DNA from: an uncultured delta proteobacterium
GTDB lineage: Bacteria > Desulfobacterota > Binatia > UBA9968
Direction of reading: 5' to 3'
DNA length: 64,000 nucleotides
Assembly (NCBI GenBank): GCA_963804165.1
Contig: CAWDPO010000043.1
Location: 1 to 64,000 of the forward strand
Positions 10,842 to 22,452 of the stretch are shown piece by piece. The notes under the pieces were generated by a model. It searched no databases and was not told the DNA's origin. It saw nothing but the letters and a program-made list of their open reading frames with translations. How positions within the stretch are numbered: position 1 is the first letter of the stretch; every line of letters begins with the position of its first letter. The position numbers were made by a program, and so were the translations under genes.

Positions 10842-11081
10842 CTAACTTTTTTTCCGCTGTTCAGGTTGGCTTTGCAGCTTGATCTCGGCCAAAACCAGTC
10901 GCTCCGCCTCGAGCCAGTCTTCCACATCGCGACCGTCGCAACAGCCCCGGCACTCGTAAAGCTCATGGGCTTTTCCAGCGATCCGCTGGTGCAATAGCTC
11001 GTCGTCGCTCACACTAAATTCGCTAACTTCCTTGACTGGAATTTCTCTGCTTCCAGCGTTACGAATTTTATTCTTAATCAT
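10842..11081 (-). CDS. DUF2934 domain protein
   Basis: RIAGKAHELYE.RG...GRDVEDWLEAE signature. Confidence 0.8.
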   Translation of the reverse strand: MIKNKIRNAGSREIPVKEVSEFSVSDDELLHQRIAGKAHELYECRGCCDGRDVEDWLEAERLVLAEIKLQSQPEQRKKS

Positions 11082-11164: not shown

Positions 11165-11440
11165 TCAACTCGGGTGAACCTTAAGGGCACTTTCAAGCTT
11201 TCTGACGTCGACTTCTCGACCTGCCTTGAGTGCGTCTAATGCGTCTTCGATAGTTCTTTTATGCAATAGCATTTTGCCCTTGGGCGCACCCGTTAGGTTG
11301 CGAGTTTTCCAGTCGCAATCTCGTGCGGCATCCTCCAGATGGTTTATCAACTCGATTCCGGTCATTGGATCCCGGGCAAATCCAGAGGACGAAAATACAA
11401 AGACCAAAGCGATTGCTGGTAATATGTATTTGGATTTCAT
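11165..11440 (-). CDS. Small secreted hypothetical protein
   Basis: Signal peptide MKSKYILPAIALVFVFSSSGFA; AGGAGA RBS. Confidence 0.6.
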   Translation of the reverse strand: MKSKYILPAIALVFVFSSSGFARDPMTGIELINHLEDAARDCDWKTRNLTGAPKGKMLLHKRTIEDALDALKAGREVDVRKLESALKVHPS

Positions 11441-11556
11441 GATATTTCTCCTATTCCTTTTCACATGACTCTAAGAGTGTGCGCACTTGTGCCGCACGAT
11501 TTCGATTCCCTTGCTCGGCAAGAACAGAGATCGACTCGACAGAGATAGGAGAGGTA

Positions 11557-11945
11557 CTAGATGCGCAGAACCGAGGACAACTGGAGATTGACTACTTTGG
11601 CGGGAGAGAACCCATTACCTGGTGGTCGAAAAGCATTCAACCTCGCGATCAAAAGCGGTACTTCTTCACCAATCGCGATGTCCAGATGCAAAGTTTTGGC
11701 ACCAAGAATTGTGCCGATGGAAAAAGCCTGCAGGGAAACCACCTGTTTATGTAAGACCTTACAGAGTTCTTCATCCGTGTGATGATCTGGAGTTTCTAAG
11801 GGGACGCTCGCATGCGCGAAACTTTGCACAACAGACGAATCTAAATGCTTGCCGTCTGTATGGGAACACGACACTAGAACACTTAGATACGCTAGGGTGG
11901 CTATAATTGCGATGCTGATCGCATAACGCGTCCGGTAGCGCCCAT
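11557..11945 (-). CDS. Secreted His-rich protein ending RPP..SVLRI, putative leader peptide 2
   Basis: Hydrophobic N-region, CSH..H..H..HH..C..H, FRPP, C-terminus LQLSSVLRI*. Start uncertain: the ATG at 11945 is one base out of frame next to a G-run. Confidence 0.6.
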
Positions 11946-12442
11946 GCGCGCAATTACGGAAGCCCAGGCAGTCCGCCCTATGTTGTGACCAAACCGCCAC
12001 TGAACGTTCCCTCCATAATTTGAGCAGAACGCAAAGGAGAGACCACAAAGAGCTTCTATTCTCTGGCGCTGACTATTGGGCGTTGATCGTCTCTGCCCCA
12101 TTGATAACTGGAGGATAATTAAAGCCTAACCAAACGGCGGGGACACGCATTACGTGATTGAAATGTCCTTATCCCTTTTCATTCGCGCGAATTGCTTAAG
12201 ATCTTTTCTCATTTCTGCAAAAGAAAACTAGCGCTTTCGGAGTCTGACTAGCCGGATTTTCGCGAGTAACTGGGTTCCTATCATGCCGGATAATCTTCCG
12301 CACGCTCACGACCGAGTCGGGTCGTATCCTTCGGGTTTCGTATTTCTTCGAGAAGTTCTTTGAGTACGCTGCGCGTGTTCCTGAGTTTTTCGCAAACCCA
12401 GGGTGCACTCTTGCGGCCACGTGTTCCAGGTTCACTCTAGCA

Positions 12443-12793
12443 TTACTTTGCTTCGGCTGCCATTTCACGATGAGATTGAGCCATGGCGGTGTTCTCCTTT
12501 GACGCCTGTTCGTAGATGCGCACCAATCCTTGGCAATGGCTTATCAGACTTTGAGCTTGTTTGCCGTAAAGACTTTTTCTCGCCTCGTATTGGGCGAGTA
12601 GTTTTTTGTGTTCGTCCGCCTTTGTCTGCATTTCTTTGGCTGCACCTTCATAATGATTTGCCAATAACTCATGATCGCTACGGGTTTTCGCACTCTGAAC
12701 AGCCTGGGTCATATCCATGGGCATCGGGTTGATTGTGCAGGAAACCAATAGACCGAAGACAGCCACAATTGTGAGATATTTTATTGTTTTCAT
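12443..12793 (-). CDS. Helical lipoprotein, paralog of 1741-2091
   Basis: Lipobox LLVSC; same length and most residues shared (MDMTQAVQSAK.RSDHE.LA.HYE). Confidence 0.75.
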   Translation of the reverse strand: MKTIKYLTIVAVFGLLVSCTINPMPMDMTQAVQSAKTRSDHELLANHYEGAAKEMQTKADEHKKLLAQYEARKSLYGKQAQSLISHCQGLVRIYEQASKENTAMAQSHREMAAEAK

Positions 12794-12795
12794 AG

Positions 12796-14124
12796 CACAA
12801 GCGTCCGGGTATTAATGGAACAAATTTAGTTCATTAGGTGAAAGTGTTTGGATGTCCTCGGTGACGATTTTGTTAAGTAGCTGATCTAAAGGGATTCGTT
12901 CAAACATGGTTAGGCTCAAGATCTGTAATATTTCATACAAGCTGGCGGAAATGTTGAGTCGTTTTTTGACGATGGCGACGAGCACGTAAACCGAGACGGC
13001 GATCCAGATTTGAGTTTTGACCGCGTTCTCGGAGGTGCCGAAGAAGACTTTGATACGAAGATGCTGCTTGATCCATTTGAAAAACAATTCGACTTGCCAA
13101 CGGCAACGATAAAGCTTGGTGATAGTGAATGCTGGCAAGGTGAAATTGTTGGTGAGGAACACCAAGCCCTTGCCGGTTGCCGGGTCCTTGAATCGGACAC
13201 GACGCAGCGGCGTGTCGAAGTCTTGTTTGGAGTAAAAGCCGGTGAGTACGATGGTCTGATCGCAAATCAATCCGGTGCTTCGATCGACGGGATGGGAATA
13301 ACGGCGCTGGGCTTTGAGGTTGGACTTGGCACGGGTCACAAAGAAGCTTTTCGCCTCGTGCAGTTGATAAAGCCGATCGAAGTCGATGTAGCCTCGGTCC
13401 ATGATGTAGAAAGCACCGGGCTCGGGCAGCAGCAAGTCCAGGACGTTGACGTCGTGCAGTTTGCCGTCGCTGATGTGGAGAAACGAAGGGATATTGCCAC
13501 GCAAATCCAAGAGCGTGTGCAACTTGATGGCTGCCTTGGTCGAGCGAAACGGCGCCCACGGAAAGACCGACAGGCACAGGTCGATCGTACTGGCATCCAA
13601 AGCATAGACCGTGTCTTTCAAATCGATACCAAACGGTTCTGTGGTATAAAGACGGCGGGCGATGGCAATGAGCGACTGGGCAAAGTCGGCGTAGATGCGC
13701 CAGTCGCGACTCTCATTGGCATTCGGACAGAGTACTGCGGGACACCCGGCTCTTGATGCCCATGTGATAGAGCTTGCGCTGTTGCGCGCGCAGGCACGCT
13801 TCGATGTCGCGCAAGCTTTCTCGATAAGTCAGTTGAGCAAAAGCCATACAGAGGTATTGGTCGAGACAAGAAAAACTTTTGACCTTGTACGTACCGCCAT
13901 AGCGCGCCACGCAACGGCCAAACGTCGTGCGCGGCAAGTGCTCGGTGACTTGCGTGAACACCAGTTTGCCCAAATTCATCCAGACCTCCTGCGAGACAGT
14001 TCCTCGCAGGGTCGCAAATCGACGGCAAGTGTTTCAAATGGAGACCAAACATACTCAGGAGTTATTTAAATCAAATCCTACAGTTAACGCTCTGCCACTA
14101 CTGAAGCATCCAGGACGAACAATG
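12796..14124 (-). mobile_element. IS4-family insertion sequence
   Basis: Transposase gene inside; imperfect terminal inverted repeats CACAAGCGTCCGGGT (12796) and CATTGTTCGTCCTGGA (14124, minus). No clear long target-site duplication. Confidence 0.8.
12812..13979 (-). CDS. IS4-family DDE transposase (DUF4372 N-terminus), frameshift near 13730
   Basis: MAFAQLTYRESLRDIEACL; ALDASTIDL; MDRGY; YRCRWQVELFFKWIKQHL (IS4 YREK motif). Confidence 0.92.
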
Positions 14125-16672: not shown

Positions 16673-18138
16673 TCATGATAGATCATGATAGCAACCGGCA
16701 GGGTGTTCATCATGCTCGTTAGTACCCGCTGCAACAGTAACCTTGATCCCGTCACGGGCTAGATCCGCGTCGCTCGCCTTCAGCGCAACGGTCCCGGCAG
16801 GATGTTTGTACCAGCCGGGATCTTCATCGTAGCTGCGAAGTTGATCCCGCACCTTAACCACCGTAAAGAGTCCGCCCATCGAGATATAATCACCGAACTG
16901 CCCGGTGGCGCCCTTCATGGCGATCGTGTTTTTCGGATAAGGCATGACCTCGGCCATTCTGCCCATATCCATGCCCGTGTGACCCATCGACATATAGGCC
17001 GGCAGGAGCGGCCGAACTTGCTCTTCCACGCCCTCGATTTTCGTCCCGACCATATTTGGGAACTGATGGCCCATCTGATTCATCACGTGGTGAGTCATGT
17101 GGCAGTGAAAGGCCCAGTCGCCCGGCGCGTCGGTAATCAATTCGATGTTGCGTGTCTGTCCGACCGCAACCAGAGCCGTGGTTTCCGGCCACTGCGCCGA
17201 GAGAGGGATATCCTCCCCGTCGGTTGCGGTGATTCGGAAATGATATCCATGGATGTGCATCGGATGATGATCCATCGCGCCCAGGTTACCTAGGCGAAGG
17301 CGGACTTTATTTCCGGTCTTGCAAACTAAAGACGCGGTAGAGGGAAAAACTTTTCCATTGATGGTGAGAATATTGAAGTCGTTCATCACCAACGTATTCG
17401 GACGGGCGGTTCCAGCTTCGATCGCCCATTCGCTGATCATGAGTGAAAAGTCGCGATCGACGTGATATTCGGTGGACGGATTCCTAGGATGAACGACAAA
17501 CATGCCGATCAGTCCCATGCCCATCTGTGTCATCTCGTCGTGATGGGCATGGAACATGAAGCTTCCGTACTGTCTGAGTGTCCATTCGTACTTTACCGTC
17601 TCGCCGGCTTTGATATATGGCTGGGTCAAACCGCCCACCCCGTCCATCCCGTTGGGGAGATAGAAACCATGCCAATGGACCGAGGTCGATACCGGCAACT
17701 TGTTGGTCACGTAAATTCGAATACGCTCGCCTTCGACAGCTTCGATGACCGTGCTATTCACCCGGCCGTTGTAGCCCCAACATTTAGCGCGCAACCCCGA
17801 GTCAAAGGCGTGATCGACTTCCTCGGCGATGAGATGAAAGACCTTGACGCCGTCAACCACTTTAAAGGGAAGCGCGCCCCCGTTTGGAACCACGACGGGT
17901 TTATAACCCTTGCCGGGTAAAACCGCTGGCAACGCTTTGACGTCGATCGGCCCGCCGCTGTAACTCTTCTCCCAATAGGCCCGGTTAGCGGACTTCGGTT
18001 GTCCCGCTGACGGTTGATACTGCGATGAGCCCCCCCGTGAGTTTTCGCCTGCCCCTCTTTTCCCAACAGCGCGACGCCGCCGGCGATCGTCGCAGCGCCG
18101 AGACCCAAAATTTCCCGCCTGGATATTTTCTTGGCCAT
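16673..18138 (-). CDS. Tat-exported two-domain multicopper oxidase, frameshift near 17940
   Basis: SRREILG Tat motif in the upstream frame; HWHG, FHAHH, HPMHIHG, HCHMTHHVMNQM. A T1 Cys is present only in domain 2. Confidence 0.88.
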
Positions 18139-18154: not shown

Positions 18155-19588
18155 TTAATGCCCTTCTATATTACGCCCTTGTGTGCGAGCGCCCCTCATT
18201 GCTGCAGCTGCCTCGCCCGCTCGCGCACCGTCGCCTCCCGGCAATCGGCCGCTCAAGAGCTGTGCTAGCTCCGCCCGAGCCAACCAATAGTCACGCAGCG
18301 CCGCGACATAGGCAGCGCCGGTCTCGATCTGCTGCTCGCGCGCGCGCAGCAATTGAATGGGTCCAAGTTGCATCGCGTTGTATTGCAACTGCGCTTCGTT
18401 AACGATGCGCTCATGAAGCGGGAGCATGATGTCCCGATAGTATAAAGCGTGATCCCGCGCTCCCTCCATGCGATCACGGACGGCCCGTGACATGGAACGG
18501 ATTCGAATCGCCAGAGAGTAATATTCCTGCTGCGCACGCCTGAGCTCTGCGGCGGCACGGCCGGTGCGTGCCTGTCCCTGATCAAACAGCGGAATGGGAA
18601 ACTCCAAAACCGGCCCGACTTCCCACTCTCCATCGGTCCGCTCTCCCAACGCGCCCATGTGCGATTCGGGAATCAGAGCTGTTGCTCTGTTCAGTCCTAG
18701 CTGCTCACCCGCAGACACTAGACGTTGCCGGGCGTTCAAAAGATCCACACTGCGGCTGAGCGCGACACGTTCGATATCCTCCGTCTGGATTGGCTGCTGC
18801 GGTATTTCGGGTAATCGTTCGTCGGTTTGCCACTCGGTCTGTTTTCCCCACAGGCCCATTAAAGTGTTTAGCTCTTCCCGGCTCTGCCGGACCGCGACCT
18901 CGGCGGACCTGAGCGCCAATTTACCGGTCTCCAGAAGCGCCCTCTCCCGAGCAAATTCGAGGTCCGTGATATTTCCCGCGTCAAGGAGCCGTCGCGTGAC
19001 CTCAAACGACACGGTGAGCGCCTGGACTATCGTCTGGCGGAGATCGAGCATTTGCTCATTTGCCTGATGCAATAAAAAGGCGGCTCGAACTCGTGCCGCA
19101 AAGTCCAAGACCATCCCGCTTACCCGAGTTTTCGCCTCCTCGAAGCGGGCGGCCGCCACTCGCTTGCGTAGCGGCAAATAAATGATATCGAGAAAATTCA
19201 TAACCACGGCGAGTTCCAGTTCCGGCTTGCCTCCGCCGGATGTCGGCCACTTTACGGCCCCGTCGAAGATCGGATTGCTGAGCAGGCCGGCTTGCACCAG
19301 GTCTGCCTGTGCAACACCAAGATCCGAATAAACCGCCTGCAGCTCGCGATTGTTGAGCAAGGCGATCTGGACGGCATCATCGACGGTTAGCTTGTCTTTA
19401 AGTAGCGAACCTAACTTCTCCGCGGCTTCTTTATCCAGATCAGTGCCGTTATTCCAATAAATTTTAATCGCGGCGCGCTCTTCCACCGTAGCTTGCACTT
19501 GATCGAAGCCAGCGTTGAGGGCGACCGAAGCGCAGCCGTTAAGAAAAACAATAGAAAGCAGCCATCCTGTATTTCGTACCGACAACAT
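18155..19588 (-). CDS. TolC-family outer-membrane lipoprotein associated with the copper oxidase
   Basis: Lipobox LNGC; LTVDDAVQIALLNNRELQA; QAGLLSNP; PIPLFDQGQ. Confidence 0.88.
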   Translation of the reverse strand: MLSVRNTGWLLSIVFLNGCASVALNAGFDQVQATVEERAAIKIYWNNGTDLDKEAAEKLGSLLKDKLTVDDAVQIALLNNRELQAVYSDLGVAQADLVQAGLLSNPIFDGAVKWPTSGGGKPELELAVVMNFLDIIYLPLRKRVAAARFEEAKTRVSGMVLDFAARVRAAFLLHQANEQMLDLRQTIVQALTVSFEVTRRLLDAGNITDLEFARERALLETGKLALRSAEVAVRQSREELNTLMGLWGKQTEWQTDERLPEIPQQPIQTEDIERVALSRSVDLLNARQRLVSAGEQLGLNRATALIPESHMGALGERTDGEWEVGPVLEFPIPLFDQGQARTGRAAAELRRAQQEYYSLAIRIRSMSRAVRDRMEGARDHALYYRDIMLPLHERIVNEAQLQYNAMQLGPIQLLRAREQQIETGAAYVAALRDYWLARAELAQLLSGRLPGGDGARAGEAAAAMRGARTQGRNIEGH

Positions 19589-19611: not shown

Positions 19612-20352
19612 CTATTTCATTTTTTCGATCTTGACGATGGCTTTTTTCGGAACGTCGATGGTAAAGCGGACCTTGTCGCCGAATTTCAGTCCTTCCAAAA
19701 GCGACGGCGGATCCACCCGATAGCCCATCGTCATCGCTTCCATGAAACCTTTGATCTCCCCATGCTCGACCACGATCTGGCTCGCACCGGGCACGGTCGC
19801 AACGACTTTTCCTTCTCCCACGACAGTCTTTTGCGGGCCCGCCTCTGCTGCAGGTCCCTGCGCTTGTTGCGGGCTCGTCGTCGCCGCCAACATTGCCCCT
19901 TTTTCGATCTTCACGATCGCTTTCTTCGGAACATCGATGGTGAAGCGAACCTTGTCGCCCGATTTCAGTCCTTCGAGCAGAGAAGGCGGCTCGACGCGAT
20001 AGCCCATCGTCATCGCATCCATGAACCCCTTGATCTCTTCGTGATCGACAACGATCTGACTGGCGTTGGGTACCGTTGCGACGACTTTTCCCTCTCCCAC
20101 CACAGTCTGCGTTCCGCTTTGTGCTGTTTGCTTAGCCTCTTCACCTTGAGGCGCTGCCACAGACAGAACAGGTTGTGTCGAAGGGATATCCGCTCGGCTG
20201 TACGCGAGTGTCTTAGAAACCGTCCGGACCGGACCGGCCGTTGCCTCAGGATTTGCCGGATGGTTCATGCTCAACGGTTGCAATTCGTAGGCAGCGCACC
20301 CCGTAAGAGCCAACACAAGAAAACCCAATGTGTTTTTGTGTGCGAATGTCAT
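19612..20352 (-). CDS. Lipoprotein with two tandem CusF-type copper-binding domains
   Basis: Lipobox LTGC; two copies of H.EIKGFM.AMTMGY..LK.GDKVRF. Confidence 0.82.
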   Translation of the reverse strand: MTFAHKNTLGFLVLALTGCAAYELQPLSMNHPANPEATAGPVRTVSKTLAYSRADIPSTQPVLSVAAPQGEEAKQTAQSGTQTVVGEGKVVATVPNASQIVVDHEEIKGFMDAMTMGYRVEPPSLLEGLKSGDKVRFTIDVPKKAIVKIEKGAMLAATTSPQQAQGPAAEAGPQKTVVGEGKVVATVPGASQIVVEHGEIKGFMEAMTMGYRVDPPSLLEGLKFGDKVRFTIDVPKKAIVKIEKMK

Positions 20353-20373: not shown

Positions 20374-21093
20374 TCAGTTTTTTAGCTTCTCGATTTTCGT
20401 GATGGCGCGTTTGTTAGTATCGATCGTGAACCGAACTTTGTCTCCGGCTTTAACCGTCTTGAGCATCGAGGATGGATTGACCTTGTAGCCCATCGTCATC
20501 GCATCCATGAAACCCTTGATCTCTCCATGCTCGATAACGACTTCCTGGGTTTGCGGAACCACCGCCAGAATTGTTCCCTCTCCCATCACGGTACTCGGTA
20601 CATCTTTGGGTCTGAGAACGGCCAGATAGGTGGACACATCGATTAGCTCTTGAACGGTCATGCGCTCATTGTAGTCCGGCATCATCGACTTACCGTCGGG
20701 ACCTCGATGCTTCTTTGCCGCCAAAGCACTCGGATTGATCACCGACTCGGTGAAATACTCCAACGGATGCAAAGGGCCCATCTGGCTGAGCTCCGGACCC
20801 GATTTGCTACCGGGAGGGAATTGCTCGCCCCTCACCTCGTGACAGACGAAGCACGCATATTTCTCGAAGACCGCCCGGCCCTTCTCAGAATCACCTTTGG
20901 GCATGGTGAACTGCCAGCCCTTTGGGTGGTGCATCTCAGGCGCTTGGGCGCTTTTCTCGGCGGCGCCAATGGCCAGCGCCGACGTTATAGTGACAATGAG
21001 CGTGATGAGGAACCATGCTTGTTTGTTTTGCATAATCGATAATCTTTTGTCGGCTCGCCGAGTTTGTGACATCAAAACTTGTTTCCTCCACAT
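20374..21093 (-). CDS. Monoheme cytochrome c fused to a CusF domain (copy 1)
   Basis: CFVCH, GPELSQMG, SMMPDY, then EHGEIKGFMDAMTMGY. Start uncertain (21033-21093). Confidence 0.8.
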   Translation of the reverse strand: MWRKQVLMSQTRRADKRLSIMQNKQAWFLITLIVTITSALAIGAAEKSAQAPEMHHPKGWQFTMPKGDSEKGRAVFEKYACFVCHEVRGEQFPPGSKSGPELSQMGPLHPLEYFTESVINPSALAAKKHRGPDGKSMMPDYNERMTVQELIDVSTYLAVLRPKDVPSTVMGEGTILAVVPQTQEVVIEHGEIKGFMDAMTMGYKVNPSSMLKTVKAGDKVRFTIDTNKRAITKIEKLKN

Positions 21094-21777: not shown

Positions 21778-22452
21778 TCAATTTTTCAATTTTTCAATTT
21801 TCGTGATCGCGCGTTTATCCGTATCGATAGTGAAACGAATTTTTTCTCCCGCTTTGACAGTTTTGAGGAGAGACGTCGGATTCACTTTGTATCCCATCGT
21901 CATGGCATCCATAAAGCCCTTGATCTCTTCGTGATCGACAACGATCTCCTGGGTCTCGGGAACCAAAGCAATGACTTTACCGACGCCGCTGACGCTTTTG
22001 GCCACACCTTTGGGTCTGAGCGCCGACAGATAGGCTGATAAATCAACCAGCTCCTGAACCGTCATATCGGCGTTAAATGACGGCATCTTGGACCTACCGT
22101 CCGGACCGCGGTATTTTTTTGCGCCGACGGCATCCGGGTTTATCGTCGACTCTGTAAAGTATTCCAGCGGATGCATGGGACCCATCTGGCTCAATTCCGG
22201 TCCGACTGCTTGGTTCTTGTCCAGTGGCGGGAATTTTTCTCCGCGGATTTCATGACATGAATAACAACTGAATTTGTCATAGACGGCACGACCTTTTACC
22301 GGATCGCCTTTGGGCATCGTGAATTGCCAACCCTTGGGGTGATGCATTTCAGCCTCACCCGCCCGAGCTGGGCCAACCCGTTGCGTCGCTCCGACAAGCA
22401 AAAACGCCGACGAAACGACAAAGAAACAGAACTTGTTCAGTTCCATACACAC
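21778..22452 (-). CDS. Monoheme cytochrome c fused to a CusF domain (copy 2)
   Basis: CYSCH, GPELSQMG, KMPSF, then DHEEIKGFMDAMTMGY; likely ATG at 22446. Confidence 0.8.
   Translation of the reverse strand: MCMELNKFCFFVVSSAFLLVGATQRVGPARAGEAEMHHPKGWQFTMPKGDPVKGRAVYDKFSCYSCHEIRGEKFPPLDKNQAVGPELSQMGPMHPLEYFTESTINPDAVGAKKYRGPDGRSKMPSFNADMTVQELVDLSAYLSALRPKGVAKSVSGVGKVIALVPETQEIVVDHEEIKGFMDAMTMGYKVNPTSLLKTVKAGEKIRFTIDTDKRAITKIEKLKN

Follow-up and report, generated by a model that had tools for sequence, protein, structure and literature searches.

A stop-adjacent anti-Shine-Dalgarno helix, conserved between the genes of two small envelope proteins, may couple their translation across a long spacer

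The 64,000-nt stretch of DNA analysed here (the window) carries on its minus strand two small genes whose 116-nt spacer (stop to AUG) is closed by its own ends: an anti-Shine-Dalgarno (anti-SD) segment just past the stop of the first gene is the exact complement of the segment that contains the Shine-Dalgarno (SD) of the second. Our best reading, to which we assign a probability of about 0.55, is translational coupling of the downstream 91-aa gene to the upstream gene, ORF147, by RNA unfolding. In silico, we show that the helix forms, that it is conserved with covarying arms, that it keeps one position relative to the stop, and that loci without the upstream gene lack it. That translation of ORF147 actually opens the helix, and that both genes lie on one transcript, we infer. 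The site is laid out as follows.

11557..12000, minus strand: upstream gene ORF147, 147 aa, basic N-terminus (ORF list; GTG 12000 start)
11557..11559, minus strand: TAG stop of the upstream gene, 5' neighbour of UACC (sequence)
11556-11553, minus strand: UACC between the TAG stop and UCUCCUAU (sequence)
11545..11552, minus strand: 5' arm, the anti-SD UCUCCUAU, its first nucleotide 5 nt past the stop (sequence and MFE)
11502..11534, minus strand: interior hairpin 1 of the spacer (MFE of 11430-11570)
11468..11497, minus strand: interior hairpins 2 and 3 of the spacer (MFE of 11430-11570)
11447..11454, minus strand: 3' arm AUAGGAGA, containing the Shine-Dalgarno AGGAGA, 6 nt 5' of the AUG (sequence and MFE)
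11440-11438, minus strand: AUG start of the downstream gene, preceded by AAUAUC (sequence)
11165..11440, minus strand: downstream gene, 91-aa protein with an N-terminal signal-like segment (ORF list and homologs)

The two arms lie 90 nt apart, AUAGGAGA downstream of UCUCCUAU, and the word has just these two copies in the window. An earlier note on this DNA had reported a perfect anti-SD just past the stop, complementary to the ribosome-binding site of the next gene; its coordinates and the exact complementarity are correct. The fold of 11430-11570 that it proposed as a check forms the pairing in silico, the 8-bp helix being present in both the MFE and the centroid of this 141-nt segment and of a longer one (11400-11640, 241 nt). 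In the window MFE the 5' arm extends, with interruptions, as far as 11538 on the minus strand. An in-frame GTG at 11464 (minus strand), 24 nt 5' of the AUG, would add 8 residues to the downstream protein and is not conserved in relatives. We also considered an AUG-UGA start-stop at 11463-11468 (minus strand) in the spacer and discarded it as not conserved (GUG-UGA in locus L023, ACG-UGA in L025). Origin of the spacer as a repeat, MITE or mobile palindrome was ruled out, since the 1-kb region matches only itself in the genome; the spacer is single-copy and therefore not a repeat, and it is conserved between genera at this same junction.

Taken alone, the single 8-mer match in the window is explicable by chance. 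When the window was shuffled 100 times, 27 of the shuffled sequences held at least two matches of the 8-mer word. A crude genome-wide scan (7.5-Mb assembly), in which the 24 nt after each stop were compared with the 24 nt before a start 60-150 nt away, returned at least 8 contiguous Watson-Crick pairs for 22 of 2938 stop/start pairs (~0.7%). The stability of the whole fold did not exceed that of shuffled sequences in either the 141-nt or the 241-nt context (z -0.86 and -0.15, respectively). With the window match by itself this near to chance, the case for the helix rests on its conservation in relatives.

Of 90 family genomes, 13 carry the 91-aa gene, and 17 metagenome stretches also gave a match, one of these spurious. 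A phylum-wide search yielded matches in 4 of 401 genomes, with marginal E-values for two of these, and a scan of genome contigs returned 6 loci, five already known and one (L022) spurious. The conservation set consisted of the 21 distinct loci in which a 147-aa family gene stands directly before the 91-aa gene; no analysis used L049 or L050, which come from two unpublished genomes (G076 and G062). Across the 21 loci the spacer measures 87-124 nt, and in 20 of them the SD region is paired in the MFE with the 24 nt directly past the stop (19/19 loci of the main set plus L045, the exception being L055). Folding from the stop to AUG+12 paired 6-12 of the 13 SD-region positions with the post-stop 24 nt. 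The highest pairing probability was 0.93-1.00 in the 19 main-set loci and 0.48 in L055. Despite the variation in spacer length, the helix starts -2 to +6 nt relative to the stop in 19/19 loci; across these loci it comprises 6-20 pairs, and its far end falls anywhere from 9 nt short of the start codon region to 6 nt inside it.

The two arms change together between clades. In the closest genus-mate (G021), UCUCCUUUC/GAAAGGAGA replaces the window's UCUCCUAU/AUAGGAGA, with both sides changed, and other clades carry the arm pairs CUCACUCC/GGAGUGAG, CAUCCUCUCC/GGAGAGGAUG, GUCCUCCUU/AAGGAGGAC and CUUUUUCUCCU/AGGAGAAAAAG. Among 11 clade representatives, true arm pairs gave a Watson-Crick stem of 8.6 nt and a pairing energy of -19.2 kcal/mol, compared with 5.7 nt and -14.0 kcal/mol for mismatched arms. 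When partners were permuted, the observed energy sum was reached in 9 of 100000 permutations (p 9e-5) and the observed stem length in 0 of 100000. Over 300 nt upstream plus the spacer, the 24-nt segment that best matched the SD region was the post-stop arm in 10/11 representatives; the exception, L008, has a helix rich in G-U pairs.

RNAalifold run on a plain MAFFT alignment of 19 spacers returned 0 pairs, since it does not bring the arms of different clades into register, and the alignment-free arm test above was therefore used together with a covariance-model-fitted alignment of the 21 sequences. In the latter, which is biased towards the structure it is given and was therefore weighted less than the alignment-free test, 72.8% of cells pair (67.7% in shuffles), 26 cells are changed on both sides (15.3 in shuffles) and the covariation score is 0.311 (0.235 shuffled, 0.11-0.25 with slid partners), with 0/500 shuffles reaching the observed value in each of the three comparisons with shuffles. 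Covariation among orthologs, the second check put forward in the earlier note, was thus found: the helix is conserved, with compensatory changes on both arms. The interior hairpins are present in relatives too, but their sequence is unrelated between clades. In L008, L012, L013, L034, L037 and L045, hairpin 1 is itself an anti-SD/SD-like pair, for example UUCUCCCC...GGGGAGAA, and its anti-SD-like arm is a second possible partner for the true SD in those spacers.

Loci with other gene neighbours provided natural controls. Behind a different gene, the 91-aa gene is preceded by a spacer of 15-39 nt that folds weakly (MFE -2.9 to -9.6 kcal/mol, six loci); this control drew on 8 loci (L011, L015, L016, L027, L028, L030, L032 and L033), 2 of them without a qualifying upstream ORF. 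In the genus-mate locus L016 (G019), which has no 147-aa gene directly upstream, the 91-aa match contains one TGA and one TAG, and this copy is probably a pseudogene. The 147-aa family is broader than the 91-aa gene, being present in 30/90 family genomes, including two unpublished genomes left unanalysed. In 14 loci the 147-aa family gene lies directly before an outer-membrane efflux gene (OEP, PF02321), with a spacer of 106-200 nt, and at 8 of these 14 direct junctions the MFE pairs the efflux-gene SD with the segment just past the stop. The arrangement is therefore a feature of the 3' end of the 147-aa gene, strictest at the 147-aa/91-aa junction. That the helix appears in the MFE at just 8 of the 14 efflux-gene junctions also counts against coupling. 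Loci L048, L053, L064, L066-L069 and L072 have no 91-aa gene, and in them the OEP gene follows the 147-aa family gene at 106-200 nt.

A scan of the spacer revealed neither a promoter-like site, as judged by the sigma-70 consensus, nor a terminator-like site. A 303-nt metatranscriptome contig, 96% like the window, spans 11751 to 11448 and thus runs from within ORF147 through the stop and the 5' arm and across the spacer as far as the SD; the loss of 1 nt at 11554 brings its arm one base nearer the stop. The RNA came from two metatranscriptome runs of one study (8-10% of sampled words), whose contigs cover 11448-12000 only. A bridging contig of this kind hints no more than weakly at co-transcription, and it may stem from DNA carry-over.

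The frame upstream of the spacer, taken in the earlier note for a leader peptide ("leader 2"), proved to be the 3' end of a conserved 147-aa gene with a GTG start, an SD and homologs. Its best start is GTG 12000, with GGAGG 9 nt 5' of the GTG. The protein collection contains an identical 147-aa gene call and 74 homologs, all unnamed or "hypothetical", and searches of Pfam and NCBIfam gave no family for the protein. The window protein has a predicted membrane segment, whose last residues are ...LSVLVSC, and conserved cysteines; its C-terminus, ...SSVLRI, is conserved as well. In a 49-sequence alignment, family members are 127-161 aa long and share three conserved blocks: a hydrophobic N-terminal stretch with VVYAC at its end, the motif PC...C..VRDRMLS.Q in the periplasmic part and a C-terminal AFHxVFKLxLPLSxxVLR[ILV]. 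AlphaFold2 (AF2) was confident only for a helix at residues 21-45 (mean pLDDT 49.2). The SD of ORF147 (GGAGG) itself sits in a predicted local hairpin with an upstream pyrimidine stretch (12005-12045, minus strand), a fold no better than shuffles (z 0.07).

The 91-aa protein has 134 homologs, all named hypothetical, and again no family was found in Pfam or NCBIfam. From its signal-like N-terminus we read the product as a putative secreted protein. Complex prediction for the periplasmic part of ORF147 with the mature 91-aa protein gave a score of 0.00, which says nothing either way.

If translation is coupled by RNA unfolding, the 116-nt spacer would fold as a closed domain whose closing helix joins the post-stop anti-SD to the downstream SD region, and on an untranslated message this helix would hide the downstream ribosome-binding site. 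A ribosome at the ORF147 stop would keep the first nucleotide or nucleotides of the 5' arm single-stranded and abut the remainder of the arm. The weakened helix would then let a 30S load on the SD, which the fold would keep nearby. Since a ribosome at the stop would weaken the helix, the 91-aa protein would be made mainly from messages on which ORF147 is being translated.

We modelled the terminating ribosome by keeping the stop codon and the next 6 or 9 nt out of any pairing, and calculated the cost of freeing SD positions -15..-4. In the window this cost falls from 7.6 kcal/mol to 3.6 (stop+6) and 0.9 kcal/mol (stop+9). The median over the 21 loci falls from 12.0 to 7.1 and 5.3 kcal/mol, respectively, with a median drop of 4.9 (stop+6) or 6.7 kcal/mol (stop+9). 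Even with stop+9 freed, the cost remains above 5 kcal/mol in 13/21 loci, and in L008 and L045 it stays near 12 kcal/mol owing to the second anti-SD-like arm within hairpin 1. The mRNA channel of the bacterial ribosome takes up 11 nt beyond the first P-site nucleotide (PMC7282821); when a stop occupies the A site, the 5-6 nt that follow it should therefore be single-stranded, with the remaining helix at the channel entrance. The proposal of the earlier note that a ribosome at the stop frees the ribosome-binding site is supported by the modelled drop in opening cost. Counting against coupling, a reach of 5-6 nt would directly open just 1-2 of the 8 core pairs in the window.

Coupling by RNA unfolding is an established model, described in PMC12548453, with rpmI-rplT, at +52 nt, as the textbook distant pair. 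The same review describes coupling efficiency as generally dropping with intergenic distance, and in a synthetic operon more structure immediately past the stop went with weaker coupling (PMC12548453; bioRxiv 10.1101/2020.02.10.941153); both points count against coupling here. As in rpmI-rplT (L35-L20, E. coli), the downstream SD here is paired with sequence of, or adjoining, the upstream cistron, and the distance (+52 there, +116 here) would let an upstream ribosome open the structure while leaving the downstream site clear, as that source describes for the known pair. Unlike in rpmI-rplT, where the partner arm is inside the upstream ORF, the arm here lies just outside it (-2 to +6 nt from the stop), and the spacer is about twice as long and forms a closed multi-hairpin domain. 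The products are unknown envelope proteins rather than ribosomal proteins, and no feedback repressor is known here. The proposed mechanism, structure-mediated translational coupling, is a known one; the gene pair is new and its spacer unusually long and closed. If coupled as we propose, the pair would be a natural example of long-distance (~100 nt) coupling with evolutionary support. With the anti-SD exactly at the channel edge of the terminating ribosome, it would therefore be a useful case for the question of how unfolding of the RNA, as opposed to scanning by ribosomes, couples distant cistrons. A further outcome is the definition of two envelope protein families, so far uncharacterised, that occur together and are linked to metal-efflux operons of uncultured lineages.

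It is unlikely that the helix works independently of upstream translation, either as a fixed damper or insulator or by silencing the long transcript only. As a damper it would keep the 91-aa protein low and block re-initiation past the stop; in the isoform variant, a shorter transcript arising inside the spacer would lack the 5' arm and be freely translated. Stable structures right after a stop are described as insulators of re-initiation in bioRxiv 10.1101/2020.02.10.941153, isoform-dependent translation is listed in PMC8208050, and the opening costs above, still high in 13/21 loci when a terminating ribosome is modelled, would suit such a role. However, a damper needs neither a long-range partner nor a fixed place, a local hairpin being enough, and the placement of the 5' arm no more than 6 nt from the stop in all 19 loci is left unexplained by both variants. 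The lack of a promoter-like site in the spacer, as far as a sigma-70-type consensus detects one, and the lack of conservation of its interior sequence between clades also argue against them. A ribosome termination structure (RTS, Chemla et al.) resembles the present one in being a stable structure right after a stop within an operon; an RTS is described as insulating against re-initiation, whereas the structure here includes the next SD. Since it both contains and co-varies with the next SD, it points to a link between the cistrons rather than to plain insulation.

Regulated arrest, in which the conserved C-terminal peptide of ORF147 would stall the ribosome at or just before the stop in the manner of SecM, MifM and VemP, appears quite unlikely. 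Relief would come from membrane insertion of the nascent chain, or from a periplasmic or metal cue, and the length of the pause would set how long the SD stays open. TnaC is another example of arrest at or near a stop codon. The SecM/MifM geometry suggested in the earlier note was recovered insofar as the SD is held in a stop-adjacent stem, but no sec/yidC gene lies downstream. For the pause at the stop that the note invoked we found no sign, and ordinary termination gives the same geometry.

Five criteria for a search of monitoring substrates, among them a length of 80-200 aa and a downstream sec/yidC gene, are set out in PMC7897499. ORF147 agrees with four of these (size, N-terminal membrane segment, hydrophilic stretch of >40 aa, conserved C-terminus); on the fifth it departs, the downstream gene encoding the putatively secreted 91-aa protein or an OEP (PF02321). 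The family ends in V-L-R-[ILV], and the Arg at -2 is found in 36/36 loci, encoded by all four CGN codons; selection therefore acts on the peptide. Stops in these 36 loci (the window and 35 related) are TAG in 22, TAA in 14 and TGA in 0, compared with TGA at 42% of long ORFs in this genome, and at least 8 TAG/TAA switches are placed on the family tree; the kinship of the loci on this tree inflates the count, so that the absence of TGA is only suggestive. Also in line with arrest, the AF2 model is mostly of low confidence past the membrane helix, and the RNA helix lies exactly at the mRNA-channel entrance of a ribosome with the stop in its A site.

Against arrest, the periplasmic part of ORF147 carries a conserved motif of its own (PC..., C..VRDRMLS.Q), which points to a working mature protein rather than a disposable sensor peptide. 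At the 6/14 efflux junctions without the helix, conservation of the C-terminal motif is no weaker, and VLRI is unlike the arrest motifs it was compared with (RAPP-like motifs, the SecM motif). With SecM-secA, MifM-yidC2, VemP-secDF2, ApcA, ApdA and ApdP, ORF147 shares small size, an N-terminal topogenic segment and a conserved C-terminus. A further likeness to the SecM/MifM/VemP class is a downstream SD in a stem that a ribosome near the end of the ORF would disturb (PMC7897499). It differs from that class in that the downstream gene is not a Sec/YidC component and the middle of the protein is conserved. Unlike in the SecM/MifM class, the 5' arm here lies past the stop, so simple termination suffices.

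We are equally doubtful that ORF147 is a new class of regulatory nascent chain outside the Sec/YidC system, with VLR[ILV] at UAG/UAA slowing termination and holding the anti-SD open. Termination would then be slow except when membrane insertion tugs on the chain or metal reaches its cysteine-rich periplasmic part. If true, envelope or copper status would be passed on to synthesis of the periplasmic partner and, in relatives, of the outer-membrane efflux duct. We flag the 147-aa family as a candidate arrest peptide.

Very improbable is a closed spacer that acts as a switch run by a ligand, protein, small RNA or temperature, such as a metal response, in which a trans factor would stabilise or open the closing helix (P1): its outline is riboswitch-like (SD in the closing helix, two or three interior hairpins, spacer of fairly constant length at 87-124 nt) and the neighbourhood concerns metal resistance, but an Rfam 15 scan of 11300-11700 gave no family match (best E 0.92, hits 0.92-8.5, far below gathering scores), the interior hairpins of different clades have neither a sequence nor a junction in common, unlike those of known riboswitches, and the whole fold does not exceed shuffles in stability.

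The neighbourhood of the pair is a copper-resistance island; on the ORF147 side it contains the following genes.

12443-12793: 116-aa lipoprotein-like gene, on the gene pair's side of the IS transposase
12812-14052, minus strand: IS transposase (DDE_Tnp_1), two overlapping ORFs, 12812-13621 and 13618-14052
16673-17932: multicopper oxidase, copper cluster
18155-19588: OEP, copper cluster
19612-20352, 20374-21093 and 21778-22452: three CusF-domain genes, copper cluster

The IS transposase separates the gene pair and the lipoprotein-like gene from the copper cluster. On the other side, the pair is followed in the window by a DUF2934 gene, a 482-aa unknown and a SLOG-domain gene; in most relatives it is followed by the outer-membrane efflux gene (OEP, PF02321; E 3e-47 in L017). 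The DUF2934 gene (10842-11081, minus strand) comes after the 91-aa gene both in the window and in L006/G021, and in more distant relatives an OEP gene occupies its position.
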